Assembly: GCA_028293565.1 (NCBI GenBank)
Contig: JAQGON010000165.1
Coordinates: forward strand, 1,011 to 65,010
Origin: Verrucomicrobiota bacterium
GTDB taxonomy: Bacteria; Verrucomicrobiota; Verrucomicrobiia; Opitutales; Opitutaceae
DNA length: 64,000 nt
Direction of reading: 5' to 3'
In this document: positions 10,786 through 57,693 of the stretch, in pieces
Numbering within the stretch: position 1 is the stretch's first letter
Layout: every line of letters begins with the position of its first letter
The notes under the pieces: model-generated
Told to the model about the DNA's origin: nothing
Seen by the model: the letters and a program-made list of their open reading frames with translations, nothing else
Database searches by the model: none
Translations under genes and position numbers: made by a program

Positions 10786-11253
10786 TCACCGAAGAGAACT
10801 ATTTGAACCGGAGGTTTCGATTTCTTTCGACGCCAGGTCGATCTCGCTCCTTACGGTCCATCCCTCCGCTTTCCAGAATTTCATTCCGGCGATGTTGTCG
10901 GAAAAAATGAAGATATGGCATTTGTGGATCCCTGCGCCTCCGAGCGCGCGAAGGGCATTGGCGATGAGCAATCGCCCGATTCCTTGACGACGAAAAAGAG
11001 GATCCACCGCCAGATGGTGAATGTAGCCGCGCCTGCCGTCGTGCCCGCATAAAACCGCACCAACGATGCGCGAGTTGGCCGCGGCGACGAAACTCATCCC
11101 AAGATTACGCTCCAAGTATGTGCGCATTTGCGCCGGCGAGTCCGCTTCGCTGAGACCGATTCCTTCGCAGCGTTGCCACAGCGCGACGACGTCACCGTGC
11201 GCGTCCATCGTGAAAGGACGAATTTCCACTTCCGCCGATTTTCCTTCTTTCAT
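10786..11253 (-). CDS. GNAT family N-acetyltransferase (YpeA-like)
   Basis: 'GYIHHLAVDPLFRRQGIGRLLI' acetyl-CoA-binding motif A. The overall layout resembles E. coli YpeA from memory. Confidence 0.88.
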   Translation of the reverse strand: MKEGKSAEVEIRPFTMDAHGDVVALWQRCEGIGLSEADSPAQMRTYLERNLGMSFVAAANSRIVGAVLCGHDGRRGYIHHLAVDPLFRRQGIGRLLIANALRALGGAGIHKCHIFIFSDNIAGMKFWKAEGWTVRSEIDLASKEIETSGSNSSLR

Positions 11254-11462
11254 ATCGCTGCAAGAGCCTGACCTTCCTGAACCAATCGATCAGTGGTTTT
11301 CAAATCACCACCGGTTGTGACGCCAGCGTTAACCTGGAGTATCGCGCAGCGCATCGAGCGTTCCATCCGCGCCCGTGTCTCGCGAACTTCTCCGAGCAAC
11401 TCACTCGGCAGTTTCCAACGCGGGACCTCGGCAAAACCACCAGGCTTGCCCGCGCGGATCAA
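11250..11462 (-). CDS. Hypothetical 70-aa ORF bridging the DUF3892 gene and the GNAT gene
   Basis: Its stop overlaps the GNAT ATG (ATGA). Its TTG start overlaps the DUF3892 stop. No recognisable motif, and the start is non-ATG. Confidence 0.25.
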   Translation of the reverse strand: MIRAGKPGGFAEVPRWKLPSELLGEVRETRARMERSMRCAILQVNAGVTTGGDLKTTDRLVQEGQALAAI

Positions 11463-11749
11463 CCGGCGAGCAGCGTCAGCAGGTCGTCGGGGTGGGTCTT
11501 CTCGCGCTCGGTCTTCAGGTATTTCTGCCCGCCGTGCGTCAGGACCGTCAGCTTCACCACGCGATCCGCCGTCTTCACGAAAAATTCGTCCGTGCCCGCC
11601 TCGATCGCCGCGATCGCGGCCGCCTGCGAAAGCTGCCAGCGCGTGTGGTCGGAATTCACGCCGCGGATCGTCTCAATCCGATCGAGCGGATCGGTGCTGT
11701 AAGCACGATTGATGGAGGAAACTGCACGTCGGCGATAGGGTCGGGCCAT
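11459..11749 (-). CDS. DUF3892-like protein
   Basis: 'IETIRGVNSDHTRWQLSQAAAIAAIEAGTDEFFV...GGQKYLKTEREKTHPDDLLTL' matches the DUF3892 pattern as I recall it. ATG at 11749 (MARPY). Confidence 0.65.
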   Translation of the reverse strand: MARPYRRRAVSSINRAYSTDPLDRIETIRGVNSDHTRWQLSQAAAIAAIEAGTDEFFVKTADRVVKLTVLTHGGQKYLKTEREKTHPDDLLTLLAG

Positions 11750-12160
11750 AAAAAAGGGGGGTCTGCGGAACTGCGTTGGCCGCCAACGTATCCGCGAAAC
11801 CCCGCGCATGCCACTTATTCCCGCCGTCTCCGGCGAAGTCCGCCCAGACCCGCCGCTTCCAGCGCGAATGACCGCCCTCTTTCGGGGAAAGAACCGCCAA
11901 GGGCAAACATGGTCCGGTTCGTGGCGAGGAATTTTCCGGACATCATGTCGCTCGTCACACGTCCCCTTCCGATTCCTGCCGGCGGCTCGCGCCGACGATC
12001 GCCCTTGCGTTTTCGAAGCACCGTGCGAGCTTGGCGGCTCGTAAGAGCGTTAGATGGCAGTAGCTGGTGAGTCTTCAGGTGAGCTTGATGTTCAGGTGAT
12101 GATTCGAAACCCGATGTTCGGGAACACGCTGACAGCGGACGAACACACGAAACACATCAC

Positions 12161-12478
12161 ATGAACTCCAAACTATACGTCGGCAACATGTCCTTCAAGA
12201 CCACCGAGTCCGACCTGCGCAATGCGTTCGGCCAATTCGGTTCCGTCACGGATGTCTACATCGCCAATGACCGCGAGACCGGCCGCCCGCGCGGCTTCGC
12301 CTTCGTGACCTTCGCGACCGAAGAGGAAAGCAAGCTCGCCACGGAAAAGATGAACGGCTTCGACCTCGACGGTCGTCCGCTCACCGTGAACGAAGCCAAG
12401 CCCAAGGAAGCCATGGGCGGCAGCCGCAACTTCAGCAGCCCGAACCGCCAGCCCGGCGCGTTCAACAACCGGAACTGA
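12161..12478 (+). CDS. RRM-type RNA-binding protein
   Basis: RNP-2 'KLYVGNM' and RNP-1 'RGFAFVTF'. 105 aa with a Gly/Asn-rich tail. Confidence 0.92.
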   Translation: MNSKLYVGNMSFKTTESDLRNAFGQFGSVTDVYIANDRETGRPRGFAFVTFATEEESKLATEKMNGFDLDGRPLTVNEAKPKEAMGGSRNFSSPNRQPGAFNNRN

Positions 12479-12506
12479 TCCGGGCGCTTCGGCGCATCAC
12501 TTCCAG

Positions 12507-12537
12507 GCGGGGTGCACTGCACCCCGCCTTTTTTTTG
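12507..12537 (+). terminator. Rho-independent terminator of the RRM gene
   Basis: GGCGGGGTGCA/TGCACCCCGCC stem followed by a run of 8 T, 29 nt after the stop codon. Confidence 0.8.
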
Positions 12538-12617
12538 CGCCCGGAATTTTTCCCGCAGCGCGATCTGCCACGCCTCACGCCCGGACGCATTGAGAACCCG
12601 TTCGACCAGCCAAGGTC

Positions 12618-12795
12618 TCGTTGTCGGCGAGAACACCGGAGCGGAGGTTGGCCGCAAAAAAGCGCAAGGGCTCCGGGGCTGCGAAGGAGCTGCCATCGCG
12701 CCCATAGGCGCACGGGAGATTCACTTCGGAGTCTTGGAGCCCTTGCGCATTTTTGCGGCCGACCTCCCCTTCGGAATTTCTCGCGGAGGATGAGG
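12618..12795. repeat. MITE-like palindromic element, family 3, copy A
   Basis: 32-nt terminal inverted repeats: 'ggaggttggccgcaaaaaagcgcaagggctcc' and 'ggagcccttgcgcatttttgcggccgacctcc'. The core 'gctgcgaaggagctgccatcgcgcccataggcgcac' is identical to the copy at 40488-40655. Confidence 0.7.
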
Positions 12796-12830
12796 ATTCA
12801 GCAGCAGGGCTGCCGTTTTATTTAAATGTT

Positions 12831-13784
12831 CTAGGCGGCGCCGATCAGCCAGCCCGCCGCGAACACGAGGGCGCCCCCGATCGCGACCTGCGTCGTGGCG
12901 GCCAGCGGCGAGGTCTCCATGTAGCGCCAGCGGATCCAGGAAATCACCGCGAGCTCGATGAGCACGACGACGAACGCGATGCCGGTGGCGAGGCGGAAGT
13001 CGTGGATCAGATACGGCAAGGTGTGGCCGATGCCGCCAAACGTGGTCATCAATCCGCACACGCTCCCGCGCAGGATCGGGCCGCCGCGGCCGCTGATCTT
13101 GCCGTCGTCCGACAGCGCCTCGGCGAATCCCATGCTAATGCCCGCGCCGACCGAGGCCGCGAGCCCGATCTTGAAAGTCTCCGTGGTGTTGCTCGTCGCA
13201 AACGCGGCGGCGAAGAGCGGCGCGAGCGTCGAGACGGAGCCGTCCATCAAACCGGCCAGCCCCGGCTGCACGATGCGGAGGACGAAGGACCGCCGTGCCG
13301 AATCATGTTCCTCGGCAATCTGGCCCTCCTCGGCCTGCCGGGCGTTGATGCCTTCCGCGAGCGACTCGTGCCGGCTTTCCTCGGCGGCGAGATCGCCGAG
13401 CAGCTGGCGCACCGAGGCGTCGCTCACCCGCTGCGCGGCGTTCTGGTAAAAGTTGCGCGACTGGATCTCCATCTGCGCGGCCTCGGCGCGCGCGCGCTCC
13501 GGGCGGATGCCGACGCCGAGCAGGCGCGAGCGGCGCGTGTAGAAACCGCGGACGTCCGCGCGCCGGATCAGTGGGATGTGCTCGCCGAAACGCGTGCGGT
13601 AGAGATCGATCAGCCGGTGCCGGTGGCCGGATTCCTCGCGCGCCATTTCGTCGAACAGTTCCGCCGTCGCGGGAAATCCGCCGCGCAGCGACTCGGCGAA
13701 ATCGGCGTAGATCCGTCCGTCCTCCTCCTCCGCCGAAATGGCCAGCGCGAGGAGCTGCTGCTCGGAGAGATCGGTGAAGTTCAT
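12831..13784 (-). CDS. mbfA: Erythrin-VIT1 (MbfA-like) membrane-bound ferritin / iron exporter
   Basis: N-terminal ferritin-like '[12 protein letters not shown]...EESGHRHRL...AAEESRHE' plus a C-terminal VIT1/CCC1 membrane domain. ATG 13784 (MNFTDLSEQ). The longer 468-aa ORF is Arg/Ala-rich read-through. Confidence 0.85.
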
Positions 13785-13894
13785 CGGGAAAATTCCGCCC
13801 GGTTCCGAATCCGGGTGAAATTCCAGATGGAGGGCTTCGGCCGCCCTCGCAATGCCAAAGGCCCTTTGCGGCGGGTGAAGCCGCCGGAGAAAAA

Positions 13895-14668
13895 TCAAGC
13901 GGCCGGCAGCGTGAAGAAAAATCCGGCGCCAGGAGCCGTGCCGGGTTGATAGCCGCAGCGGCCGCCCTGGAGTTGAACCAGCCGCTGGATAATCGGGAGA
14001 CCATAACCCCGCGGGGCGCTGAGCTCGTGGAGCTGCTCGAGCGGAAAAAAGAGGCGCGCCCGCTTTTGCTCGGGCACGCCGGGCCCGCTGTCGCGGAGCC
14101 AGCAGCGGTGTTCCCCGTCGATGAGAGTCCAGCCGAGTTCGAGCCGCGGAGCCGGCCCGCCATGCTGCAGGGCGTTGAGGACCAGATGATCCCAGATGAT
14201 ATTCAGCCAGGCGGGCACGCCGCGGAGCGACGGCCACTCCGGCGGCTGGAGCACCGTGGCGCCGGCCTTCATGATCGGCTCATCCAGGCGCCGCAGGGTA
14301 TCCGCGACGATTTCCGTCATCTCCACCTTCTCCGCGGCCTTCGGATTGGCGGTTGCAATCAGGACCACGCTCAGCCGCTCGACCAGGGTCATGGCTTCGC
14401 CCACGGAACCGGAGACCGACTGGGCGAGGCGTTCCGCGATCGAATCCGGCGCGGCGGAAGGATCGCGCAGCGCCTCGTTCGCGGTGCTGATGCAGTTGAG
14501 CGGGTTGCGCAGGTCGTGGACCAGCCGCCGGCCGATCGTGCGAAGATCGCCGCGCAGGCGCGCATTGTCGCGCTCGAGCGCCGCCAGCGACGGCGCCGTC
14601 GCGGTGCTGCCGCTTTCGGCGGGAGGATGGCCGGCGCGAGCCGCGGTTTTGATTGTTCCGGACTTCAT
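13895..14668 (-). CDS. Soluble histidine kinase (coiled coil + HisKA + HATPase, no sensor domain)
   Basis: H-box '[12 protein letters not shown]', N-box 'LVLNALQHG', 'RDSGPGVP', '[11 protein letters not shown]'. The ATG at 14668 overlaps the upstream stop (ATGA). Confidence 0.8.
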
Positions 14669-16377
14669 TTCTGGTTCGAGACTTCGACGATGAGACTCTT
14701 CAGCCGCTCCAGGTTGATCGGTTTCGTGAGATGGTGCGCGAATCCGGCGTCGAGGCTTTTCTCGATGTCCTCTTCCATCCCGTAGCCGCTGACCGCAATC
14801 CCCGTGAGCCCGTGACGATCGCGCATGTGCCGCATCATTCCGCAGCCGCCGCCCTCGTCCGGCAAGCCGAGGTCGCTGATCACGAGATCGAATTCCTGCA
14901 CGGCCGCGAGCTTGAGCGCCTCGTGCGCCGTCTCGGCGGCGGTGACGTCGTTTTTGGTCGCCTGGAGATAAAGCTGCAGCGTGAGGCGGGTGTCCTTGTG
15001 ATCCTCGACCAGCAGGATGCGCAGCCGGCGGCCCTGCTTGGGCGGCGCGGAACGCGCGGCGGCAGGCAGCGCAGGAGCGGAAGCCAACGGCCGCAGCGGC
15101 AGGTTGAGCGTGAACGTGGCGCCGAGGTTGAGGCCCGGGCTTTCGGCGCGGATGGCGCCCCCGTGCGCGGCGAGGATCGACGTGGCGATCGCCAGCCCGA
15201 GCCCGCCGAACTGCCGCGTGATGTGCCGGCTGCCCTGCTCGAAGGCGTCGAACAATTTGAGCGAATCGTGCGGATTGAAGCCGATGCCGGAATCCCTCAC
15301 CTCGACCCAGACGCTGGGCTGGGTGGTGTTGCCGGTGCGGATCGTCACCTGCCCTCCCATGGGCGTGAACTTGATCGCGTTGCGGATGAGATTCCACACC
15401 GCCTGCTGGAGACGCACGGCATCGCCGGTGGTCATGGTTTCCAAGGCGTCAAGGTGCAGGTTGAAACGAAGGCGTTTTTCCTCGGCGTCGGAGGCGCAGA
15501 TTTCCATCGCGCGCTTGACGACGTTGTGGAGGTCCATCGGGCCGGGCTGCAGCTCGAGCTTGCCTTTCGCGATCCGGGTCAGGTCGAGCAGGTCGTCGAT
15601 GAGGTGAGCCTCGAGCTCGATGTTGCGGCGGATCAGGGCGAGGCCGCTCCGGACGTGCGGCGGAAGTTTCTTCGTCTGCTCGAGCGCGACGGTGGCCATC
15701 AGCGCGGGGTTGAGCGGCGTGCGCAGCTCGTGGCTGAGGGCGGCGAGAAATGCGTCCTTCGCGAGATTGGCCTTGTCGGCGAGATCCTTGGCGAGCCGCA
15801 GTTGCTGCTGGCTCTTCTGCTCCGTCAGATCGGTCACGACCACGCACAGGATATTCTGCCCCAGCGCCGGCAGGCGGCTGGCGGTGAGGTGGACGGCCAG
15901 GGTGCTGCCATCGGGGCACAGCAGGACGCTCTCGTGCTTCACGACGTCGCGCTGCTCGGTGAAGACGGTCGAGAGGCTGTCCCACGCCTCGGCGACGAAA
16001 TGGTTCGCCATGCCGGCGCTGATGACGCGCTCGAGCGGGGTCTTCACCATTTCGGCGAAGCGCTGGTTGCAGTAGAGAATGAGCCCGTCCTGCGAGGCGG
16101 TGATCGCGCCTTCCTGCATCTGCTCGACGTAGACCCGGTACCGCTCCTCGGCGCCGGTGAGGCTGTAGATCTTGCTGCCGGCGGCGCCCTTGACGACGAC
16201 GGCGTCGACGGCGCCGCTCTGGATCGCGTCGAGGGTTTCCTGAGCTTCCCGGAGCCGGTCACAGAGGGCAAAGAACTTCTTGTCGCTGATCCAGCGACCC
16301 GAAGTCGTCCGGCCGTTTTTCGCGGCCTTGACCGGAATGGCCTTTTTCGCGGGCTTCGGCATGAGCCGCTTTCTCAT
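14665..16377 (-). CDS. Hybrid sensor histidine kinase (PAS + HisKA + HATPase + receiver)
   Basis: 'LSHELRTPLN' H-box, 'VRDSGIGF', 'GGLGLAIA', and a C-terminal receiver 'ILLVEDHKDTR...DLVISDLGLPDEGG...TKP'. The ATG at 16377 overlaps the kaiB stop (ATGA). Confidence 0.85.
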   Translation of the reverse strand: MRKRLMPKPAKKAIPVKAAKNGRTTSGRWISDKKFFALCDRLREAQETLDAIQSGAVDAVVVKGAAGSKIYSLTGAEERYRVYVEQMQEGAITASQDGLILYCNQRFAEMVKTPLERVISAGMANHFVAEAWDSLSTVFTEQRDVVKHESVLLCPDGSTLAVHLTASRLPALGQNILCVVVTDLTEQKSQQQLRLAKDLADKANLAKDAFLAALSHELRTPLNPALMATVALEQTKKLPPHVRSGLALIRRNIELEAHLIDDLLDLTRIAKGKLELQPGPMDLHNVVKRAMEICASDAEEKRLRFNLHLDALETMTTGDAVRLQQAVWNLIRNAIKFTPMGGQVTIRTGNTTQPSVWVEVRDSGIGFNPHDSLKLFDAFEQGSRHITRQFGGLGLAIATSILAAHGGAIRAESPGLNLGATFTLNLPLRPLASAPALPAAARSAPPKQGRRLRILLVEDHKDTRLTLQLYLQATKNDVTAAETAHEALKLAAVQEFDLVISDLGLPDEGGGCGMMRHMRDRHGLTGIAVSGYGMEEDIEKSLDAGFAHHLTKPINLERLKSLIVEVSNQK

Positions 16378-16811
16378 AGCGCCATCCAGGCAGTCGACGC
16401 GGACCGCACCGCGAGGTTGAGCCCGACGAGCACCTTGTCGCGATCGGAGAGATTCCCGATCAAACGCCGGAGCGGTTTGGGCGTGATCCTGATCAGCGTG
16501 GGCGCGGCGATGATCTGTTCGTTCGAGGCCTGCAGGGGCTGCTGGTAAATGTCGATGACCTTGAGGTCGTAACGGCCGGCGAGAAACTCCTCGCACAAGG
16601 CGCGGACGTTGGCGATGGCCTGACCAGAGCGCGAGCTCGTGCCGGTGACGTACAGCCGGAGCTCGTAACGCTGCTTTTTCGAAGTTTCGTGCAGCAGCGC
16701 CTCGAATTCGGACGTGCGATTGCCGTCGGCCGCGGCCGGCGACCGGCGGGGGGACGACCGTCGAGGCGACGCCTTCCTGGCCCGGGCGCGCGATTTGGTC
16801 TTGGCGGACAT
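16374..16811 (-). CDS. kaiB: KaiB (copy 2) with a basic ~50-aa N-terminal extension
   Basis: Core 'ELRLYVTGTSSRSGQAIANVRALCEEFLAGRYDLKVIDIYQQPLQASNEQIIAAPTLIR'. N-terminus '[25 protein letters not shown]'. Its start overlaps the upstream stop (TGATG). Confidence 0.9.
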   Translation of the reverse strand: MSAKTKSRARARKASPRRSSPRRSPAAADGNRTSEFEALLHETSKKQRYELRLYVTGTSSRSGQAIANVRALCEEFLAGRYDLKVIDIYQQPLQASNEQIIAAPTLIRITPKPLRRLIGNLSDRDKVLVGLNLAVRSASTAWMAL

Positions 16812-17212
16812 CAGGGGAGGGAGCGATTCACCCGGGTGCGCGAAGGGACATCCATGCCAGCGAGCACGCGCTCGACGTTGGAGAGGTCGCCGATGACGCG
16901 CTTGATCGGCTGCGGCAGCTTCCGCACGAGCGTCGGCAGGGCCACGATCTGGTCGAGGTGCGCCCGGTGCGGCGCCTTGGTGAGGTCGATCACCTCGATC
17001 CGGTAGTGGCCCGCGAGATGTTCGTCGCAGATGCCCTTGAGGTTGGAAAAGGCCGCGAGCGAACTGGTGGACTGGCCGGCCACGTAGAGGCGGAGGAGCC
17101 AGGGCACGAGCAGGGCGGAGTCGCCACGGGCGGGTGCGGGGGTCTTGGAAGAGCGGACCCGCGCGGGCTTGGCCCGGGGTTTCTTCTTCGCGGAAACAGG
17201 TTTCTTTTTCAT
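16811..17212 (-). CDS. kaiB: KaiB (copy 1) with a basic ~35-aa N-terminal extension
   Basis: Core '[62 protein letters not shown]'. N-terminus '[27 protein letters not shown]'. Confidence 0.9.
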
Positions 17213-17220
17213 GGGGGGTC

Positions 17221-18936
17221 TCAGCCTCTCTTCGTTTTGCCGGCCTGCCGGCTCTTCGCCGTGGCCAGCCGGTCGGTCATGATCTGGTCGGTTTTGGACT
17301 GCTGGCTGGCGACGGCGCGGCCGAATTCCTTTTTCTCCGCCTCGAAGCCCGCGCGCAGCGCCTCGACCTGGGCCTCGACGGCCTGCCTCCGGTAATCGAG
17401 GACGAGCTGCTTGCGCTGGATCTCCTCGTGGAGCGATTTTTCCGCGGCGGCGTCCTGCGTCTCCTGGATCAGGCGGGCCGAGCCAGTGAGCACGCCGGTG
17501 GGACCGAGGTACGTCGGCACGAGCCGCAACCCTTGGGACGTGATAAGAAACTCGCGCACCTGGTTCGAGTGCGCCATGCCCCGCGACTTCAGGACGTAGA
17601 GTCCCCGGTTGCGCTCCCCGCCCAGCTCGATGTCGCTGAGCAGAAGCCAGGTGTCGACGATCGAGCTCATGCCCTCGTCGGTTTCCTGCGCCGTGGCGAC
17701 GTTCGAGAGGCTGACAAAAAACGCGGTGATGACCCGCTTGCGCAGGAAATCGACGAGGCGGATCAGCATGTTGTTCGACTCGTCGCTGTTTCCGGCGGTC
17801 GCGAGATTCGTGACCGGGTCGAGGATGACGACCGCGGGCTTGAAGTCGTCGACGAGCCGGTGCAGCTGCACGAGGTGCATTTCGAGCCCGTGCACCGTCG
17901 GACGGGTGGCGTGAAACTGGAGCAGCCCGGCTTCGACGTGCGGCGCGAGATCGATGCCGATCGAGAGCATGTTGCGCAGGATCTGGGCCTCGGACTCCTC
18001 GAAGGAAAAGTACATGCAGCGCTCGCCGCGCGAGCAGGTCGCGAAAGCGAGACTGGCGGCCAGGCTCGTTTTCCCGGTGCCGGCGGTCCCGCTGAGCATG
18101 ACGGTGCTTCCGCGATAAAATCCCTTGCCGCCGAGCATGTCGTCGAGCTGGGCCACGCCGGTGGAGACGCGCTTGTTCGAAACGTCGTAGTCCATGCTGG
18201 CCGAGCTGAGCGGCAGCACCGAGATTCCCTTCGTGTCGATCAGGAAGGGGTATTCGTTGGCGCCGTGGGTGGACCCGCGGTATTTCACGATCCGCAGGCG
18301 GCGCGTGGAGATCTGGCCGATCACGCGGTGGTCGAGCAGGACGACGCAGTCGGAGACATATTCCTCGAGCCCGTAGCGCGTGAGGAGGCCGTCGCCGCGC
18401 TCCGCGGTGATCACGGTCGTCATTCCGCGCGCCTTGAGCCAGGCGAACAGCCGCCGCAGCTCGCCCCGGAGGATCGCCTGGTTGTTCAGGCCGGCGAACA
18501 GCGACTCGATGGTGTCGAGCACCACGCGCTTCGCGCCGATGCTGTCGATCGCGTGGCCGAGCCGGATGAAGAGCCCCTCGAGGTCATATTCGCCGTTTTC
18601 CTCGATCTCGCTCCGATTGACGTAGACATGGTCGACGACGAGCTGCTTGCGGGCAACGAGGTCCGCGATGTTGAACCCGAGCGACGCGACGTTCTTCCGG
18701 ACGTCGGCGGCGCTCTCCTCAAACGTCATCAGCACTCCCGGCTCCTTGAACTGGATCGCGCCGCGCACGAGAAATTCGATCGCCATGAGCGATTTGCCGC
18801 AGCCCGCGGATCCGCACACGAGGGAAGGCCGGCCGGCGGGGAGGCCACCGCCGGTGATTTCATCGAAACCGGTGATGCCCGTGGGTACTTTCGCGAGCCG
18901 GTCGGTGCCGGCGATGATTTTGTTGAGTTTGGACAT
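17221..18936 (-). CDS. kaiC: KaiC (double RecA/P-loop domain) with a C-terminal coiled-coil extension
   Basis: CI Walker A 'GSAGCGKS' with 'TFEES'. CII Walker A 'GTAGTGKT' with 'FSFEES'. Phosphosite region '[11 protein letters not shown]'. ATG 18936 (MSKLNKII). Confidence 0.92.
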
Positions 18937-19223
18937 GGAATTCAAAGAATCAGAGACGAATGAGCTGAAGGCGGGGAATTTTGCCGGGAGGCCTTGACGC
19001 CGTGCACCGCAGCGGTCCAAGACGGAGAATAGCTAGCCGAGGCGATTTCGATCCTTAGCTAGCAAAGGTTCTCTGATGCGTAAAACGGGGGTTCGTTCCA
19101 GACTGCGATGCGATTTATCGGATAATGTGGAAGGGGGCGTCCCCTGCAGTCGTTTGCCGGGCAGCGGCGAATCAAAATTTGGACTTCGCGGCCACGGTTT
19201 TTTTCTCCAAACCACACGGTGCC

Positions 19224-20135
19224 ATGACCTACGCCGAAATTGCCGCCGCCCTGCCGAAAACCGCCGTCACGTCCATCGAGGGGCTGCCCTTCCCCCTTCT
19301 CGCCTCGGGCAAAGTGCGCGAGATCTACGATCTCGGCGACGCGCTGCTGCTCGTCGCGACCGACCGGTTGTCGGCCTTCGACGTCATTCTGCCGGATGGC
19401 ATTCCCGGCAAGGGCGCGATCCTGACCCAGATGAGCAACTGGTGGTTCGAGCAGACGAAGGGACTCATTCAGAATCACCTGCTGCCCGATCAGCCGGGAG
19501 AGCTCAGGCGGCGCGGGATCACCGAGGCCGACCTCCAGCTTCGGAGCATGGTCGTGCGCAAATTGAAACCGCTCACGATCGAATGCGTGGCGCGCGGTTA
19601 CCTGATTGGCAGCGGCTGGTCGTCGTATCAGAAGACCGGCGCGGTGTGCGGAATCAAACTCCCGCCCGGACTGCGCCAGGCGGACCGGCTGGCGCAGCCG
19701 ATCTTCACGCCGACGACCAAGGCGCCGAAGGGACAGCACGACGAGCCGATCGACGACGCCCAGGGGGCGGCCACGATCGGCGCGGAGCTTTACCAGCGCG
19801 TCAAGGACACCAGCCTCGCGCTGTACAAATTCGGCCACGATCGCGCACGGAAGGCCGGGATGATTCTCGCCGACACCAAGTTCGAGTTCGGCACCGATGA
19901 CGCCGGCAGCCTTTATCTGATCGACGAAGTGCTGACGCCTGATTCGTCGCGTTACTGGCCCGCCGAGAGCTACGCGACGAACCAATCACCGCCCAGCTAC
20001 GACAAGCAGTTTGTCCGCGACCACCTGGTGGCCATCAAATGGAACCAGGGCCCGCCCGCGCCCAGGCTTCCCGTCGACGTGATCCTGCGGACGCAGGAAA
20101 AATATCTGGCCGCGCTGAAGAATCTGATCGGTTGA
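19224..20135 (+). CDS. purC: Phosphoribosylaminoimidazole-succinocarboxamide (SAICAR) synthase
   Basis: 'GKVREIYDLGDALLLVATDRLSAFDVILPDGIPGKGAILTQMSNWWF' and 'DTKFEFG'. ATG at 19224. Confidence 0.92.
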   Translation: MTYAEIAAALPKTAVTSIEGLPFPLLASGKVREIYDLGDALLLVATDRLSAFDVILPDGIPGKGAILTQMSNWWFEQTKGLIQNHLLPDQPGELRRRGITEADLQLRSMVVRKLKPLTIECVARGYLIGSGWSSYQKTGAVCGIKLPPGLRQADRLAQPIFTPTTKAPKGQHDEPIDDAQGAATIGAELYQRVKDTSLALYKFGHDRARKAGMILADTKFEFGTDDAGSLYLIDEVLTPDSSRYWPAESYATNQSPPSYDKQFVRDHLVAIKWNQGPPAPRLPVDVILRTQEKYLAALKNLIG

Positions 20136-20257
20136 GGCGGTTGAAAATTCGGTCTGGTTGAACAGAAGGGAACGGAAGGGAACGAAGGCGGTTCGCTTCG
20201 GGCGGACGGGCTTTTTTTGGTGGGCTTGGGTCCGGCGGAACGGGTCGGAGACCCGTT

Positions 20258-21595
20258 TTACTGCATCACGCCGGTGCGGCGGATGGGGGAGGTCGCTCCG
20301 CTTTCGGCGCGGATCAGCTCGCGGCGGAGCCAGTCGAGGGCGGCGTTGACGGCGCGGCTCTTCACCGTCGGGCGCGGGCCGGGATAGCTGAGTTTCTTCG
20401 ACCACACGCCATGCGGCGCGTGGAGCGCGATGAACATCGTGCCGACCGGATTGCCGTTCGCGCCTTCCGACGCGCTCGCGCCCGCGAAACCCGTCACCGC
20501 CAGGGCGTAATCCGCGCCGAGCGTTTCCGCGGCGCCCGTCGCCATCGCGACCGCGCCTTCGGGGCTCACGGAGCCATGCTGGAGCAGCAGGCACTCGGGC
20601 ACGTCGAGGAGCTGCATCTTCGCGTCGTTCGTGCAGCAGACGACGCCGCCGGCGAAAAATTTGCACGCCCCGCACACCTCCGTGACGGCGTGCGCGAGCA
20701 GGCCGCCGGTGGCCGTCTCCGCCACCGCGAGTTTCTTTTCCTGCGCCCGCAGGAGATCGGCGCAGACCTTCGCGAGCGAATCATGGCCGTAGCACATGAA
20801 GTCCTCGCCGAGCAGCTGCGCACATTCCGCGGCCACCTTGTCGAGCTCGGCAAAGGAAAGTTTTCCACTCGGCGAGCTCACACGGCAGTCGACCTGCCCC
20901 TGGTGCGCACAAAACGCCACGCTCAGCGCCTCGCCATGCCGGTCGAAGATCGGCTGCAGCCGCGTCTCGAGCGCCGACTCGCCGATCCCCGCCGTGCGGA
21001 GCTGCACGTAGGCCTCGCGGCCGAGCAGCAACCCGAGTTTCGCGAGGCGCGGAATCACCTGTTCGACAAACATCGGCTGCAGTTCGTTCGGCGGCCCGGG
21101 CAGCATGCAGAGCACCTTGCCCTCCTGCTCGACCCAAAGGCCCGGCGCCGTGCCATGCGAATTGGGCAGGACCACGCCGCGTTCGAACCGGTAGGCCTGC
21201 TTCAGGTTGTTCGGCGTCATCTTCCGCCCGAAGGCCGCGAAGCGGTCCATCATCGCCTTCTCGATGTCGCGGTCGAACACGAGCTTCTGCCCGAGCACCG
21301 CGGCGATGACCTCGCGCGTGCGGTCGTCGCAGGTCGGACCGAGCCCGCCGGTCGTGATGATCACGTCGGCCGCCTTCCAGCTTTCGCGGAACTGGCGCTC
21401 GATGTCCTCGGCTTCGTCCGTAATCGTCACATTGCGCGAGAGAAGCACGCCCCGCCGCCCCAGCTGCGCGCCGATGAAGGTCAGATGCCCGTTGCCCGTC
21501 AGCCCCAGCAACAGCTCGTCCCCAAGCGTCAGGAGCTCGTAGCGCTTGGCCGCGAAGGGGGGGGATGAGGAGTGATGGGAGCCGGTTGAAACCAT
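20258..21595 (-). CDS. cinA: CinA family protein (MoCF/MoaB-like domain + nicotinamide-nucleotide amidase domain)
   Basis: 'LLTLGDELLLG...TTGGLGPTCDDRTREVIA' plus a C-terminal 'LAVAETATGGLLAHAVT'. Confidence 0.85.
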   Translation of the reverse strand: MVSTGSHHSSSPPFAAKRYELLTLGDELLLGLTGNGHLTFIGAQLGRRGVLLSRNVTITDEAEDIERQFRESWKAADVIITTGGLGPTCDDRTREVIAAVLGQKLVFDRDIEKAMMDRFAAFGRKMTPNNLKQAYRFERGVVLPNSHGTAPGLWVEQEGKVLCMLPGPPNELQPMFVEQVIPRLAKLGLLLGREAYVQLRTAGIGESALETRLQPIFDRHGEALSVAFCAHQGQVDCRVSSPSGKLSFAELDKVAAECAQLLGEDFMCYGHDSLAKVCADLLRAQEKKLAVAETATGGLLAHAVTEVCGACKFFAGGVVCCTNDAKMQLLDVPECLLLQHGSVSPEGAVAMATGAAETLGADYALAVTGFAGASASEGANGNPVGTMFIALHAPHGVWSKKLSYPGPRPTVKSRAVNAALDWLRRELIRAESGATSPIRRTGVMQ

Positions 21596-25089: not shown

Positions 25090-28000
25090 TTACGGCAGCT
25101 CGTAGATTTCGACGAGCGCCGTGCCGGTGGTGCCGGTGCTGCTCTTCACCTGCGCGGAATAGGTGCCGGGAGGAAGGTTGACGATGATGGCGGCGTCGGC
25201 GCTGCCCGAGCCGAAGGCGAACGCGCCGGCCTGCGTCGCCGCGAGCGCGATCTCCGCGCCGGTGGCGCCGGGCTGCCCCGCCGTGACGGTGACCGGCGTT
25301 CCCCAGTTGTCGTTCTGCGCGATCACCACGCCGCCCGCGTCGTAAAGGTTCAGCACCGGGTCCGCCATGTAGGCCGACACGCCATAGTTGCCGAGCGCCG
25401 GACCCACGCCGCGGATCAGGATCCGCTTGCTGGCCGAGCCGCTCACCACGAAGCCGCCGATCAAGGTGGTAGCCCCCGAATTTGCCGTGGAGCGCGAGGA
25501 AAGGTTCACGAGCCGCGGAGCGGCCGCCGAACTGTCGGTGCCGGTGTCGTAAACTTCCGTCAGGGCGATGCCGCTCGCGCCCGTCGTGTCAGACACCACG
25601 ACCGAGTAACGGCCGGGAGCCAGCGAGACGAGCAGCGCGGCGTCCGCGCTGCCGGCGATCAGCGGAAAGGCGCCGACCTGGTTGAAGACTCCGGTCAGCG
25701 TCGCACTGCCGCCCCAGCCCGCGTTCGAGCCGACGAGGGTGCCCGCGGAATTGAAGACTCCCAGCTGGGGATGCGCGATGCCGGTCACGCCGAAAGGCGT
25801 CAGGCCCGGACCGACGGCGCGCAGCAGGACGGTCTGCGTCGTCGTGCCGCCGATGACCAGGCCGGCGATCAGCGGGTCGCCCGCCGTGACCTGCGCGCGG
25901 GTGGAAAGATTGATGAACCGCACCACGGAGGCGCCGCCCGCCGACGGATTGACGATCAGCACCAGATTCGCCGTCGCGGAACCCGCGGAGGTGGTCGCTT
26001 TCAAGGTCACGTTAAACGTCCCCGTCTGCGTCGTCGTTCCCGAGATGATCCCGGTGGCCGGGTCGATGCTGAGGCCGGCCGGCAGGCCCGTGGCGCTGAA
26101 GGTCGCGCCGGTGACGTTGGTGATGATCCCGTAATAGAAATTCGACCCGAGTGTCCCGCTGGCCGTCGTCGCACTCAGGATCTGCGGGGTCACCGGAACG
26201 GCGCCGGAAAAAATCACGCGAACGGTTTCGACGACGCCTGAAGAACCGTATTGCGACGTGGGGGTCGTCCCGCGGGCCCGAAGGAACACCGCGGAATTCG
26301 CCGGCAAGGTCGCGCCCGCGAGCTGCCACGTGTCGGACGTGCCGACGCGCGCGGCCTGGCCCAGCGTGGTCCAGGTGCGGCCATCGCTCGAGTCTTCGAG
26401 GATAACGGAGCTGACCGCCGGGCCCGAGCCCGTGCGCGTCCAGGTGATCGTCGTGAAGGTGGAGTCGACCGTGAGCGCTTCGAGCACCGGGGTCGACGAT
26501 GCGACGCGGGCGAGGCCGTAGCGCGCCAGGGTTCCCACCGAGGAGAAACCGCCGCCGAAGATCACCTTGCCGCTCCGCGTCAGTGCCGTCGCGGTGACGG
26601 AGCCGTTGACATTGGGATTGAAGGCCGGATCGGCCGCGCCCGTGGAAGCGAGCTGCGCGAGGGACGAAACGGAGACTCCGCCGATGGCGGTGAACGCGCC
26701 TCCGACGATGATGCTGCCGTTGGATTGGACGATGATGGAATTGACGTTGCCGTTGGGAGACGCGCTGAACGTGGAATCCGTCGTCCCGTTCGCGTTCAAG
26801 CGAACGAGTTGTCCCGGCGCCGCGCCGCCGACGAGAATCTTCCCGTCGGGCTGGAGCGCGATCACATTGACTGCGCCCAGGGCGGCGGGATTGAACGACG
26901 CGTCGAGGGTGCCGTCCGCGTTCAGGCGCTCGAGGGTGCCGTGCGCGGCGCCGCCGAAACCGACGGACGTCCCGCCGAGGAGAACCTTGCCGTCGGGCTG
27001 GAGCACGAGAACCGCCGGGCCGCCGGTCGCAGACGGGCTGGCGCTGAAGGTGGTGTCGATGGTTCCGGCCGCGTTGAGCTGGGCCACGCCGGTGCGCGTG
27101 GCGCCGGCGATGGTGGTGAACGTGCCGGCCACGATGGCGCGGCCGTCGGGCCGCAGCGCAACGGAGTACACCGCACCGTTCGGATTCGGCGCGAAGGACG
27201 CCGAGGCCGAGCCCCCCGAGTTGAGCAGCGCGAGATTGCTGAGGGCCGAGCCGCCGATGGAGCTGAAGGAGCCGCCCACGAGGATCGAGCCCGAGGGCTC
27301 CAGCGTGGTGAAAAGCCCGCCGACCAGGATTGAACCGTCCGAAGTGACCGCCAGCGCCGTGACGGTGCCGTTGGGATTGGGATCAAACGCGCCATCCACC
27401 GTGCCGTCGGAATTCAGGCGGGCGAGTCGCGCGCGCGACACCGCGACGGTCGAACCGGCAGGCTTCAAGGTCGTGAAAGTGCCGCCGGCAATGATTTTCC
27501 CGTCGGCCTGGAGCGCGAGCGTTGCGACGGGCGCGTTGACGTTCGGATCGAAGGTGGTGTCGAGCGAGCCGTCGCTGTTCACCCGCGCGAGGTTGTTCCG
27601 CGTGATGATCGTCGCCGAGCCATTGGCCTGGAGAAAACTGAAGGAGCCGCCGAGCACGACTTTTCCATCCGGCTGGAGCGCGAGCGCGACGACGTTGCCG
27701 CTCGCGCCCGGGTCGAACGTCGCGTCCACGGAATTGTCGGCCTTGATGCGGGCGATGTGGTTGCGCGTCAGGACCGTGGTGGATCCCGAGGAGGCGATCA
27801 TCGTGGTGAATGCGCCGCCGACGAGCAGCGCGCCGTCGGGCTGCAGCACCATGGTATAGACGGCGCTGTTCGGATTCGGATTGAGGGTGTTGTCGTACGA
27901 TCCGTCCGCCTTCACGCGGGCCACGTAATTGATCGACGTGGAGCTCGTGGCGCCATTCGGCTGGATGCTGGTGAAGCTGCCGCCGAGGAGAATGTAACCG

Positions 28001-31000
28001 TTGGGCTGCACGAGCAACGTGTTCACCGTGCCGTTCGCGGTGGGATTGAACGCCGTGTCGAGCGAACCGTCGGAATTCACGCGAGCGATGTACTGCCGGC
28101 TGGTGCCGCCCACGTTCAGGAACGCGCCGCCGAGGACGATTTTCCCGTCGGGCTGGAGGGCGATCGCGTTGACGGTGGCGTCCGGTCTCGGATTGAACCC
28201 CGTGTCGAGGCTGCCGTCGGCATTCAGGCGGATGAGAAACCCGCCGGTCTGGCCCGTCAGGTCGATGATGTTGCCCGCCAGGAGAATTTTTCCGTCAGGC
28301 TGCACGAGGACCGAGCTGATCTGGCCGCCGAGCTGCGTGGTGCCGCCCGGCCGGAAGGAGGTGCGGAGCGTGCCGTCGCTGTTCAGCCACGCCAGGTTGG
28401 TCAGCTGCGTGCCGACCGTGCCGCCGTTGAGGCGCGTGGCCACGGCGTTGACCGGGCCGTTCGCGTCGGGGTTGAACGCCAGGTCCGGCACGCTCTCGGT
28501 GTTGAACCGCGCAAGGTTGGCGCTCGAGTTGCCGCCGAGCGAGGTGAACGCCCCGCCCACGAGAATGCGTCCGTCGGCCTGCACGGTCAGCGAATTGATC
28601 ACGGCCCCCGTCGAGCCGCCGGTGCCCGGGACAAGGAAGGTGGAATCCACCGACGCATCCGCGTTGAGCCGCGCGAGCTGGTTGCGCGCCACCGGCGAGG
28701 CGGTGTTCGATTTCAACGTCGTGAACGCGCCGCCGATCAGGATGCGGGCGTCCGGCTGCACCGCGATCGCGATCACCTGGTTGCCGACGCGCTCGCCAAT
28801 GCCGGCGTCGAACGCGCTGTCGACGACGCCATCCGCGTTGATCCGCGCGAGATAACTGCGCGGCACCGCCGTCGGGTTGTCGACGTCCGACGCGAACTGG
28901 GTGAACAACCCGCCCGCGATCACCTTGCCGTCAGCCTGCAGCGCCAGCGAGCGCACGACGTTGTTGGCGCCCGGATCGTAATCGGGATCGACGGTGCCGT
29001 CGGTGTTCAGCCGGGCGATTCCGCGGCGGAAACTCGTGGTGGTCTTGCCCGTGGTCGTCGTGCCGTCCGCGTTGACGGTGGTGACGGTCACGGTCGGGGC
29101 GTTGGTGGGCTGGAGGAAAGTAAAGGCGCCGCCGATGATCACCTTGCCGTCGGCCTGGACGGCGATGGCATTGACCTGCTTGTCGGCGCTCGGGTTGTAG
29201 GTCGCGTCGAGGGTGCCGTCCGTGTTGATGCGCGCGATGTTCGCGCGATTTCCGGTCGCGAATCCGAGGAAGTTGCCGCCGACCAGGATTTTTCCGTCGC
29301 CCTGGATCTTGATCGCAAAAACCGCGCCGCCGGCCTGCGGATCGAACGGGCTGTCGAGCGATCCGTCGGTGTTCAGCCGCGCGAGGCGATTGCGCGCGAT
29401 CGATTGCGAGGATCCGTTGGGCCGCAGCGAGAGAAAATAACCGCCGACCAGGATCTTGCCGTCCGACTGGAGGGCGAGCGCGTTCACCTGGGCGTCGAAA
29501 TTCGGCTCAAACGACGCATCCAGCGAACCGTCGGTGTTGAGGCGTGCCACGCGGAGCTTCGCAACGCCCTTCACCGTGGTGAAGGTGCCGCCGATCAGAA
29601 TCTTCCCGTCGGACTGAAGGGCAATCGCGTCGACCTGTCCGTTCAGGTTCGGATCGAAGCCGGTGTCGATCGTTCCGTTCGCATTGAGGCGCGCGAAGTA
29701 GTTGCGCGTCGCGCCGCCGATCGTCGTGAACGAGCCGCCGACGAGCGCCTTGCCGTCCGGCTGGACCAGCAGGGCCAGCACGCGCCCGTTGGTGTCCGGA
29801 TTGAAATCGGCGTCGAGCGTGCCGTCGAGGTTCACCCGCGCGAGATGGCTGCGGGGCGCCGCTGTGAACGCGGTGCCAGGCTGAAGCTGCGTGAAATTTC
29901 CTCCGAGCAGGATTTCGCCGTCCGACTGCTCGGCGATCGCGTTCACCGTCGAGTTCGGGCCGGAATCGAACCCCTCGTCGAGCGTGCCGTCCGGATTGAT
30001 CCGGGCGACATTGGTGCGGCGGGTCGAGGCGACCGCGGCAAACGAGCCTCCGACAAGAATGCCGCCGTTGCTCTGCAGCGTGAGGGCCATGACCGGGCCG
30101 CTGACGTTGGGGTTGAAGGAAAGATCGAGCGAGCCGTCGACGTTGAAGCGCGCGAGATGGTTGACCGTCGTCGCCGCGCCGGCGCCATTGGGCGCGGCGC
30201 TGATAAAATACCCGCCGGCGACCACCCTGCCGTCATGCTGGACGATCACCTTGGTCACGCCGTTGTCCGGCTCCGGATCGTACCCGGCGTCGACCGAGCC
30301 GTCGACATTGAGCCGGGCGATGCCCTTGCGCACGGTCGCCGTCGCGGCGCCGTTGGGCTGGACCATCGTGAAACCGCCGCCGAGGACAATGCGTCCGTCG
30401 GCCTGCAGCGCGATCGAGAGGACAATGCGGTCGACGTTGGGGTCGAAACCCGCATCGAGCGATCCGTCGGCGTTGAAACGTGCGACGCGATTGCGGACCG
30501 TCGACGTGCTGGCTCCATTGGCCTGCACGGTCGTGAATGCGCCGCCCGCGACGATCCGTCCGTCGGACTGGAGGGCCAGGGCTTCGACCCCCGGCGGCAG
30601 AAAACCGCCGAGGTTGGGATTGAAACCGGCGTCGACCGTGCCGTCCGCGTTCAATCGCGCGATGCGATTCCGCGTCGTCACGGCGCCGAGGTTGGGCTGC
30701 AGCGTCGTGAAATAGCCGCCGACGACGATCCGGCCGTCAGGCTGGACGACGATGGCAGCGACCTTGCCGTTTGCCGTGGGATTGAACGTGGCGTCGACCG
30801 TGCCGTCGACATTCAGCCGGGCGAAGTTGGCGCGCGCGACGCCGTGCACCGTCGTAAAAGTGCCGCCGATCAGGATTTTGCCGTCGGCCTGCGGGACAAT
30901 GGCGTAGATCGCTCCATCGACATTGGGATCGAAACCGTCTGCAGCCGAGGGGGAGTTGGTCTGGGCGCTGATTGCGGCGGAAAGGGCCATGAAGGCGAGA

Positions 31001-56542: not shown

Positions 56543-57685
56543 ATGACACCCATCGTCAGAGTTGAAATCGGACGCTTCGATTACACGGTCGCGGGGGAAT
56601 TCAAGTTCTTCAAGCCGGGTCCGGACGGCCGCGTGACCCGACCTTCCGTTCTCGTCCGGCTCACCGATGCGGACGGACAGCAGGGCTGGGGACAGTCGGT
56701 GCCGGTGCCGTCGTGGACCTATGAAACGGTCGAATCGGTGATGAGCACGCTGCGATTCTATCTCGCGGAGATCATGCTGGGCCGCGACCCGGCGGACTTT
56801 TCGGGGCTGCACGCGGCGATGAACGCCGCGATCCGCCCCGCCTTCTCGGTCGGCCAGCCGCTCTGCAAGGCCGCGCTCGACCTCGCGTGCCACGACCTCG
56901 CCGGACGCCAGCGCGGCGTGCCCGCCTGGAAACTTTTCGGGCCGCCGTCGGCGGCGCGGGACCGGCTCACGCTCAGCTGGACCGTGGCGTCGCCGAGCAT
57001 GGACGCCGTGGAGCGCCAGCTCTCCGCGGGCCGCGCGCGCGGCTACCGGAACTTCAACATCAAGGTCGGCGCCCCGCAGACCGCCGACTACGACGTCGCC
57101 TTGGCGAAATGCGTGCGGGCCTTCGCGCCCGAGGGTTTCCTGTGGGCGGACGCGAACACCGGCTACACCACGGATGAGGTGCTCGCGCTCGCGCCGAAGC
57201 TGCGCGACGCGGGCGTCGATGTCCTCGAGTCGCCGCTCCCGCCGACGCAGATCCGCGGGTACCAGGCGTTGAAAAAACTCGGGGCGCTGCCGGTGCTGAT
57301 GGACGAGGGCATCCTTTCGCCGGCGGAATCCGCGGAATTCATGGCGCTCGGCATGATGGACGGCATCGCGATGAAACCCGCGCGCAACGCCGGCCTCTGG
57401 CCCTCGGTGCAGATCGTCACCCAGCTCCGCGAGCGCGGCCTGATGGTGCTCGGTTCCGGGCTCACCGATCCCGATTTGTCGCTCTCCGCCGCGGCGCACC
57501 TGTTCGCGTGGGCGGGGATCGCGCAGCCGTGCGCGCTCAACGGCCCCCAGTTTCTCAGCGACCGGCTGTCCGGTGAAACCCTCGTGCCGGAAAATGACGC
57601 GTTGACGGTTCCGACCGGACCCGGGCTCGGGCTCGCGCTCGACCCGCGCGCGGAAGCGTGCCTGGAAACCGCGGCCGGATCATAG
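56543..57685 (+). CDS. Enolase-superfamily enzyme (MR/MLE type)
   Basis: 'YRNFNIKVG', metal ligands in 'WADANTGY', 'LESPLP' and 'LMDEGI', and the beta-6 Lys in 'GIAMKPARNAG'. Confidence 0.85.
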   Translation: MTPIVRVEIGRFDYTVAGEFKFFKPGPDGRVTRPSVLVRLTDADGQQGWGQSVPVPSWTYETVESVMSTLRFYLAEIMLGRDPADFSGLHAAMNAAIRPAFSVGQPLCKAALDLACHDLAGRQRGVPAWKLFGPPSAARDRLTLSWTVASPSMDAVERQLSAGRARGYRNFNIKVGAPQTADYDVALAKCVRAFAPEGFLWADANTGYTTDEVLALAPKLRDAGVDVLESPLPPTQIRGYQALKKLGALPVLMDEGILSPAESAEFMALGMMDGIAMKPARNAGLWPSVQIVTQLRERGLMVLGSGLTDPDLSLSAAAHLFAWAGIAQPCALNGPQFLSDRLSGETLVPENDALTVPTGPGLGLALDPRAEACLETAAGS

Positions 57686-57693
57686 CCCGAGCC

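Follow-up and report, generated by a model that had tools for sequence, protein, structure and literature searches.

Here we describe a KaiC-KaiB-histidine kinase module in a 64,000-nt stretch of contig JAQGON010000165.1 (hereafter the window). The window comes from the metagenome-assembled genome (MAG) of a soil or freshwater verrucomicrobial bacterium. Its nearest relatives carry the label Opitutus or Opitutaceae, and the host is presumed to be a non-phototrophic heterotroph. The module consists of five consecutive minus-strand genes, from 18936 to 13895, that encode KaiC, two KaiB proteins and two histidine kinases (HK1 and HK2):

18936..17221, minus strand: kaiC, 571 amino acids (aa), ATG start, TGA stop at 17223-17221
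17212..16811, minus strand: kaiB1, 133 aa
16811..16374, minus strand: kaiB2, 145 aa
16377..14665, minus strand: HK1, hybrid histidine kinase, 570 aa
14668..13895, minus strand: HK2, 257 aa, last gene of the module

Eight nucleotides (gacccccc) lie between kaiC and kaiB1. The next junction is a TGATG, in which base 16811 is common to the kaiB1 TGA and the kaiB2 ATG, and the kaiB2/HK1 and HK1/HK2 junctions are each an ATGA overlap. Short gaps or overlaps are again found at the gene junctions of related loci; in one of them (L012), the HK1 and HK2 open reading frames (ORFs) share 4 nt. Judged from this layout, the five genes very probably form one translationally coupled operon. An earlier note on this DNA, made from the sequence alone, had described five same-strand genes coupled in this way, and both the coordinates and the Pfam and NCBIfam identities of the products bear it out.

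The annotated starts are supported by homology. For kaiC, a homology search returned a database entry (P0001) identical across all 571 aa; an exact look-up of the protein in the contig index gave no record, and the entry surfaced only in the homology search. The ATG positions of the kaiB genes are kept in two relatives at 91-92% (L001 and L039), where all indels in the low-complexity kaiB N-terminal tails are multiples of three. A longer HK1 ORF starting at GTG 16596 was ruled out: 220 nt of it would lie within kaiB2, and the shorter form, from ATG 16377, is matched by homologues from its first residue on.

KaiC resembles the R. sphaeroides protein

KaiC matched PF06745 in two stretches (347.6 bits), giving two RecA-like domains, CI and CII. 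The protein scored 720.8 bits against the NCBIfam equivalog NF006799 (cut-off 408) and was below the cut-off of the cyanobacterial equivalog TIGR02655 (357 vs 546 bits). Its best match in the PDB is KaiC from Rhodobacter sphaeroides (KaiC-RS; 8DBA, 651.9 bits, ~60% identity), with aa 14-563, C-terminal tail included, aligned as a single stretch. The remaining KaiCs in the PDB, cyanobacterial ones among them, reach at most 369 bits, and their alignments end near residue 490. A motif search and the alignment with KaiC-RS located the following elements:

18790..18813, minus strand: CI Walker A motif, GSAGCGKS, aa 42-49
18712-18723, minus strand: CI catalytic motif, FEES, aa 72-75
18067..18090, minus strand: CII Walker A motif, GTAGTGKT, aa 283-290
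17992-18003, minus strand: CII catalytic motif, FEES, aa 312-315
17662..17667, minus strand: putative phosphosites S424/S425 within EGMSS (aa 421-425), aligned with S413/S414 of KaiC-RS
17224..17448, minus strand: C-terminal extension of ~75 aa (aa ~497-571), putative coiled-coil stalk

Both Walker A motifs, both EE pairs and the S/S phosphosite pair had been read in KaiC before, and the motif search confirms them. In R. sphaeroides KaiC, S413 and S414 are the phosphosites, and the Ser-Ser pair in place of Ser-Thr defines KaiC2 (PMC10076222). A C-terminal extension is typical of the KaiC2 subgroup, with a coiled coil that joins two hexamers; in R. sphaeroides this extension stands in for KaiA and permits autophosphorylation (PMC10076222). 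The tail of the window KaiC is of suitable length for such an extension, which runs ~50 aa past the A-loop. HMMER aligned it with the coiled-coil region of 8DBA as far as that chain's residue 554, with no gap printed, though identity within the tail is low. The last 81 residues are proline-free and rich in Ala, Gln, Glu, Lys and Arg; a heptad count gave no clear pattern. By homology and motifs, KaiC from the window is of the KaiC2, or R. sphaeroides, type.

No match to the KaiA family (PF07688) was found among the 35 window proteins scanned, a result that applies to the window and not to the rest of the genome. The claim that kaiA is missing therefore stands for the window, while the lack itself has a known structural explanation, because KaiC carries a tail like the KaiA-replacing extension of R. 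sphaeroides. KaiA has been reported from cyanobacteria only (PMC5520375).

The two KaiBs belong to an ancient paralogue pair

KaiB1 and KaiB2 match PF07689 at 86.6 and 86.5 bits, respectively (cut-off 27). Both are below the cut-offs of the NCBIfam KaiB equivalogs, with 76.8-85.5 bits against 145.3 for TIGR02654 and 110 for NF006798. By these scores, both are members of the KaiB family and not equivalogs of the cyanobacterial clock KaiB. The best PDB match of KaiB1 is R. sphaeroides KaiB (KaiB-RS; 8FWJ_M, 90.2 bits), and the two window proteins are 44% identical to one another. Their parts are arranged as follows:

within 17212..16811, minus strand: KaiB1, of KaiB-I type; basic disordered tail (aa 1-37), KaiB core (aa 38-122)
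within 16811..16374, minus strand: KaiB2, of KaiB-II type; basic tail (aa 1-30), FExLL helix (aa 31-45), core (aa 49-133), C-terminal TxWxxL tail

KaiC was used to scan genomes, giving a sample of 79 loci, which were searched by tblastn with all five proteins. Sixty-eight of these were informative, having enough sequence downstream of kaiC. Tandem KaiBs, KaiB-I and then KaiB-II after kaiC, were present in 53 of the 68 (one of them with three KaiBs), a fraction that is indicative only, because the sample is biased to KaiCs having peptide words in common with the query. Twelve loci contain a single KaiB of the KaiB1 type (L031, L035, L041, L042, L044, L048, L053, L056, L058, L064, L068 and L069), one contains a single KaiB of the KaiB2 type (L076), and two contain no KaiB (L029 and L033). 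The tandem loci span at least seven phyla. They include Verrucomicrobiota, Planctomycetota, Gammaproteobacteria, Alphaproteobacteria (Azospirillum, Pseudoroseomonas and Acetobacteraceae), Bacteroidota (a MAG labelled Chitinophaga), Desulfobacterota (Solidesulfovibrio), Acidobacteriota-like groups and Spirochaetota. Among the cultured carriers are Chthoniobacter flavus Ellin428, Azospirillum doebereinerae, Novipirellula and Solidesulfovibrio aerotolerans. The earlier note knew of no characterised version with two tandem KaiBs and a two-kinase output in this kind of organism; by the survey, the two KaiBs are not peculiar to such organisms but an old pair shared by many phyla.

We placed 122 KaiB cores in a neighbour-joining tree, which separates them by position. 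Clade I contains the position-1 KaiBs, including KaiB1 from the window, together with KaiB-RS and all but one of the 15 single-copy KaiBs. Clade II contains the position-2 KaiBs, including KaiB2 from the window, and the single-copy KaiB of L076. Between loci, mean identity is 66% for position 1 vs 1 and 53% for position 2 vs 2; for the pair inside one locus it is 46%. The nearest neighbour is of the same position at 53/53 loci for position 1 and 52/53 for position 2. As judged from these comparisons, KaiB-I and KaiB-II are an ancient paralogue pair in fixed order, KaiB-II is the faster-evolving member, and KaiB-I is orthologous to R. sphaeroides KaiB. The Opitutaceae chromosome OZ245769 (L076, 8001-11938) is the only case found of KaiB-II without KaiB-I: its KaiC is 78% identical to that of the window and is followed by a KaiB-II-type gene alone, with a 175-nt gap at the kaiB-I place.

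KaiB-II proteins have a near-invariant F-E-x-x-L in a predicted helix just ahead of the core, from Chitinophaga to Planctomycetes. The core itself contains IDIYQQP, and in Verrucomicrobia the protein ends in a TxWxxL tail; the conserved residues in KaiB2 are F36, E37, L40, T140 and W142. The basic residues of the C-terminal half and an IGDLS motif are kept in both KaiBs. Across ~110 homologues per KaiB type, the N-terminal tails have a median length of 39 aa (KaiB-I) and 45 aa (KaiB-II), with ~28% Lys plus Arg and a net charge of about +8 to +9. No such tail is present in KaiB-RS, which is 92 aa long. Within the window, KaiB1 (17102-17212), KaiB2 (16722-16811) and HK1 (~16290-16377) all open with tails rich in Lys, Arg, Pro, Ala and Ser. 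We also read the alignments at the fold-switch determinants of cyanobacterial KaiB (K58, G89, D91 and Y94), where the pattern is absent from KaiB1, KaiB2 and KaiB-RS alike and does not discriminate among them.

Natural single-gene fusions of KaiB-I to KaiB-II were found in four entries (P0271, P0128, P0261 and P0294). One of them, P0271 (L083, 5001-5753), is encoded on a 2.49-Mb contig, with kaiC on one side and a PAS/HK/REC kinase gene on the other. By the Rosetta-stone argument, these fusions hint that the two proteins act jointly at a ratio of ~1:1.

Structure predictions for the KaiB pair

For each KaiB, an AlphaFold model was built from a clade-specific alignment. The KaiB2 core was modelled as beta-alpha-beta-alpha-beta-beta-alpha, with predicted local distance difference test (pLDDT) values of 72-86 by block. 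In Foldseek, this model gave template modelling (TM) scores of 0.82-0.87 to 8FWJ_M, 5JWR, 5JWO and 4KUN, a group comprising KaiC-bound KaiB-RS, fold-switch-stabilised KaiB and Legionella KaiB. The N-terminal domain of SasA (PDB 6X61) is lower among the matches. The KaiB2 core is therefore predicted to be in the thioredoxin-like, fold-switched state. The KaiB1 model was too low in confidence, and a fold assignment for it was dropped. Together, the models are weak evidence for a locked KaiB-II accompanied by a metamorphic KaiB-I.

Histidine kinases of the module

HK1 begins with a basic tail and an N-terminal cap, followed by PAS (aa 78-186), HisKA (206-270, with H216), HATPase_c (318-429) and Response_reg (454-563) domains assigned by Pfam. 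Its H, N, G1 and G2 boxes are intact. By sequence reading, the receiver keeps E458-D459, the candidate acceptor D502, S526 and K548, and the PAS domain is without a LOV-type (light-oxygen-voltage) cysteine motif. Across all loci, the conserved region of HK1 comprises its N-terminal cap and PAS (aa ~41-194). An HK1-homologous PAS kinase follows kaiB in nearly all loci, at times with PAS and kinase encoded as two proteins.

Neither HK1 nor HK2 contains a KaiB (PF07689) or thioredoxin-like domain, which agrees with the earlier observation that both kinases lack the KaiB-like docking domain of SasA. HK1 is neither SasA-like nor CikA-like, because it has no KaiB-like domain, it has PAS and not GAF, and its receiver keeps a candidate Asp. 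Pseudomonas KaiC binds the kinase encoded next to it, for which the PAS domain of that kinase suffices (bioRxiv 10.1101/2022.01.26.477890). This PAS docking is a precedent for a KaiC that docks without a SasA-type domain.

HK2 consists of HisKA and HATPase_c only, with ~45 aa ahead of the dimerisation and histidine phosphotransfer helix, and is soluble with no input domain. Its catalytic boxes include H51, N165, a G1 motif DSGPG and a G2 motif GYGL. The HK2 family (163 representatives at E <=1e-30) has a usual length of ~340-360 aa, 51 invariant columns in its alignment, and an unannotated N-terminal domain of ~110 aa. This domain is missing from HK2 of the window and of two relatives (L002 and L039), with all catalytic boxes kept. 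The “sensor-less” HK2 is, from these alignments, a lineage-specific N-terminal truncation. Full-length kinases of the family are present in L013 (12408-13439), L012 (12234-13316), L019 (6763-7866) and L080 (5521-6603), and the consensus of their N-terminal domain reads ..AAxxAFP..ExLVLxxP..GLPRWAVVxxG. The domain has no Pfam match, and a profile search of PDB sequences gave no significant hit (best E = 0.12; LuxR-type receiver E = 0.32). A receiver-like nature for this domain was considered and found unsupported, the LuxR-type receiver being reached only at that E-value.

HK2 homologues follow HK1 in seven Opitutaceae-type loci only (L002, L003, L008, L012, L013, L014 and L039). In the Limisphaerales locus L019, the only non-Opitutaceae locus with one, the homologue is upstream of kaiC, and the closest relative of the window (L001) is without HK2 altogether. 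A metagenome scan with HK2 returned 3 loci, none with kaiB. On this sequence comparison, the conserved core is four genes (kaiC, two kaiBs and the PAS kinase) and HK2 is accessory. Thus, the five-gene order holds among relatives for four genes and not for the fifth, and the two-kinase output proposed in the earlier note is not a conserved feature of the module.

Some related loci have additional signalling genes. In a Nibricoccus MAG (L013, 13488-16318), the module is followed by an extra PAS-containing histidine kinase and a REC-GerE (NarL-type) response regulator; the latter is a candidate for the missing partner and has no equivalent in the window. In an Opitutaceae MAG (L002, 45-812 and 1428-7937), a distant second KaiC-like gene (27% identity) and three further HK1-like kinase genes lie upstream of kaiC. 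A hybrid kinase is immediately upstream of kaiC in L008, L012, L013 and L014.

Comparison with known Kai systems

The R. sphaeroides KaiBC system (8DBA, 8FWI, 8FWJ; Pitsawong et al. 2023, PMC10076222) is like the window in its KaiC2-type KaiC, S/S phosphosites, alignable C-terminal tail and lack of KaiA. Its KaiB is the closest solved structure to KaiB1 (90 bits) and in the same clade, and its operon also has a linked PAS histidine kinase. Conversely, the window has an extra KaiB-II between kaiB-I and the kinase, a second kinase appended and a host that is presumably not a phototroph, and its KaiBs have basic N-terminal tails of ~40 aa that are missing from R. sphaeroides KaiB. A kaiC-kaiB-PAS/HK operon has been published for both Rhodopseudomonas palustris and R. 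sphaeroides (Ma et al. 2016, PMC4794148). In R. palustris the order is the same (kaiC, kaiB, PAS histidine kinase), a single transcript is predicted, and the KaiA-less system is described as proto-circadian or hourglass, with a phenotype tied to nitrogen fixation in a phototroph (PMC4794148). The figure legend for that operon gives a single kaiB (PMC4794148), whereas the window has a second kaiB inserted and HK2 appended. The operon frame is therefore known, as kaiC-kaiB-PAS/HK was already described in purple bacteria. Outside cyanobacteria, KaiC-linked kinases without a SasA domain are the rule (PMC3164672).

Cyanobacterial KaiABC with SasA and CikA shares with the window a double-domain KaiC ATPase/kinase, a KaiB domain able to take the thioredoxin-like fold, and two output histidine kinases. 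It also has an extra KaiB-like thioredoxin module besides KaiB, namely the N-terminal domain of SasA (6X61), which is among the fold matches of KaiB2. The window differs in having no KaiA and S/S rather than S/T phosphosites, and its kinases have neither a KaiB-like domain nor a pair of GAF and pseudo-receiver, the HK1 receiver keeping its Asp. The Legionella pneumophila kai operon (KaiB Lpp1115, 4KUN) is non-cyanobacterial and KaiA-less, and its KaiB crystallised in the thioredoxin-like fold predicted for KaiB2; this KaiB is equidistant from KaiB1 (53 bits) and KaiB2 (56 bits). The Pseudomonas KaiC-like/HK modules are also KaiA-less, with KaiC docking on the PAS of the adjacent kinase, and contain no KaiB at all (bioRxiv 10.1101/2022.01.26.477890). 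Neither the Legionella nor the Pseudomonas system has the tandem KaiB-I/KaiB-II pair. Searchable full-text literature held no description of a conserved tandem pair of this kind outside cyanobacteria, although an earlier mention is possible. The KaiB pair looks to be the new part of the operon, and the rest of the frame is already known.

Proposed mechanism and alternatives

The gene anatomy, motifs, homology, conservation of order and paralogy described above are shown by the sequences. We consider it probable, with some room for doubt, that the module is a KaiC2-type, KaiA-independent KaiBC phospho-switch, serving as an hourglass timer or energy-state sensor and wired to two-component signalling within one translationally coupled operon. 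We infer every protein-protein interaction and every activity in this scheme, those of KaiC and KaiB-I by analogy from close homology to the characterised R. sphaeroides system, and those of KaiB-II, HK1 and HK2 from conservation, gene fusions and weak models. The C-terminal coiled coil would pair KaiC hexamers and hold the A-loop region open, so that at high ATP:ADP KaiC could autophosphorylate on S424/S425 without KaiA. In R. sphaeroides, CI is bound by fold-switched KaiB, which stimulates ATP hydrolysis (PMC10076222). Fold-switched KaiB1 would likewise bind the post-hydrolysis CI ring, leading to faster ATP hydrolysis and to dephosphorylation as ATP:ADP falls. KaiB2, which may be mostly or always thioredoxin-like, would act with KaiB1 at one and the same KaiC ring, probably in a hetero-oligomer of ~1:1; this step is weaker and comes from conservation. 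There it could modulate KaiB-I loading, read-out or both, like a free-standing equivalent of the KaiB-like domain of SasA. HK1 would sense the state of KaiC and KaiB, most likely through its N-terminal cap and PAS, with a phosphorelay through its own receiver (REC). HK2, an accessory kinase that appears to have lost its input domain, would probably exchange phosphate with the HK1 REC or with a shared, unlinked response regulator.

Several observations count against this scheme. At the thresholds used, no KaiC residue separates tandem-KaiB from single-KaiB loci. The PAS kinase is still present in single-KaiB loci, so KaiB-II is dispensable for kinase coupling. No response regulator adjoins the module among the window proteins scanned. 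A difference in fold preference between KaiB1 and KaiB2 is not established, because the KaiB2 model is moderately confident (mean pLDDT 64, core 72-86), KaiB1 was modelled in its N-terminal half only, with pLDDT 44-51 in the switching C-terminal half, and AlphaFold is biased towards fold-switched KaiB. Nor is a day/night role obvious in a host presumed to be a non-phototrophic heterotroph. KaiB and KaiC homologues in Legionella have been tied to stress resistance rather than timing. The same has been found for KaiC homologues in Pseudomonas (bioRxiv 10.1101/2022.01.26.477890).

In one alternative, which we regard as unlikely but still deserving some weight, the same proteins form a stress or energy-state switch without timekeeping, and KaiC phosphorylation reports ATP:ADP or redox to the kinases. 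Such a role has been proposed for the kai operon of Legionella and for the KaiC-like proteins of Pseudomonas. An Opitutaceae-like verrucomicrobial heterotroph would suit such a role, as would a PAS domain in HK1 without the LOV-type cysteine motif; the Pseudomonas KaiC homologues both improve stress resistance and bind a neighbouring kinase, and Legionella KaiB (4KUN) is among the best structural matches of KaiB2. However, KaiC from the window resembles KaiC-RS (652 bits) much more closely than it does the KaiB-less KaiCs of the Pseudomonas type, the full set of KaiB partners is kept, and KaiC-RS and R. palustris KaiBC act as an hourglass timer (PMC10076222, PMC4794148). The alternative also overlaps mechanistically with the phospho-switch proposed above, and the two are not fully exclusive. 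It is far more difficult to see KaiB2 as a redundant duplicate of KaiB1 that adds dosage only. Although both KaiB domains are intact with equal Pfam scores and both keep the basic residues of the C-terminal half and IGDLS, the duplication is ancient, with clades in fixed order across at least seven phyla. KaiB-II also has conserved extras of its own (the FE helix and IDIYQQP), the paralogues are just 44% identical, and both halves are kept in the fusion genes, which together make simple redundancy very improbable.

For HK2, the question is whether it takes part in Kai output or is a decaying remnant or unrelated passenger. The ~110-aa N-terminal family domain is missing, HK2 is absent from L001 and from all non-Opitutaceae loci but L019 (where it is upstream of kaiC), and the HK2 homologue of L080 does not adjoin kaiBC. 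Yet HK2 shares an ATGA overlap with HK1 here, as it does in L012, the short form is frameshift-free in L002 and L039 at 56-60% identity, and the catalytic boxes are all intact in a family with 51 invariant columns. We therefore think a remnant or passenger improbable and keep HK2 as an accessory of the phospho-switch.

A more specific and rather doubtful extension has the CI ring of KaiC capped by an obligate heteromer of KaiB-I and KaiB-II. A permanently fold-switched KaiB-II, similar to the N-terminal domain of SasA, would nucleate or gate the loading of a metamorphic KaiB-I and offer its FE helix or tail to the PAS kinase. If true, KaiA-less KaiC2 systems would gain from this cap a second layer of regulation, with delay, cooperativity and phase-specific output, and an hourglass could become more clock-like, possibly a self-sustained timer in many non-photosynthetic bacteria.

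Genomic surroundings

Upstream of kaiC, the neighbouring gene is a divergent purC. Downstream of HK2, the next gene on the same strand follows after 110 nt:

18937..19124, no strand assigned: kaiC/purC divergent intergenic region, presumed promoter region of the operon; bounded by the longest purC ORF, so the true purC start may be further in
12831-13784, minus strand: rubrerythrin-VIT gene, with a rubrerythrin domain fused to a C-terminal VIT1-like membrane region

No sigma-70-like promoter was found in a scan of 13500-19400, and terminator-like hairpins on the gene strand all fall within coding sequence. An Rfam scan of 11000-21000 gave no RNA family, and alignment of the kaiC upstream region with four relatives gave no conserved sequence. 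The purC and rubrerythrin-VIT flanks are not kept around the Kai module in relatives, which indicates that the module is an independent unit. Farther out are genes for an RRM protein, a DUF3892 protein, a GNAT acetyltransferase and an MFS transporter, and the remainder of the window is given to sugar metabolism, transport and a giant beta-propeller protein. The last is a 1988-aa protein (25090-31056, minus strand) with 18 matched DUF5122 beta-propeller repeat stretches and a putative Ig domain. The sole other signalling gene found in the window encodes a LuxR/GerE-type regulator, 30 kb off. At 57658-61026 (plus strand), an uninterrupted 1122-aa ORF contains both an SBP_bac_5 solute-binding domain and an ABC permease domain, either an unusual fusion or a mis-set start in the rough gene call.

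Implications for KaiA-less systems

Work on KaiA-less clocks rests on models with a single KaiB (R. sphaeroides and R. palustris), whereas most KaiC2-type operons in our sample have two distinct, co-inherited KaiBs, at times fused. If the pair holds up, the common natural form of the “primordial” KaiBC timer has an unstudied component. This would bear on the origin of delay and output coupling in systems with neither KaiA nor SasA, and on the evolution of metamorphic KaiB, where one paralogue may be locked in the fold-switched state with the other still switching. The cultured carriers make the tandem-KaiB question testable. If true, the finding would also bear on timekeeping in abundant soil and freshwater heterotrophs, including Verrucomicrobiota, Planctomycetota, Azospirillum and others.

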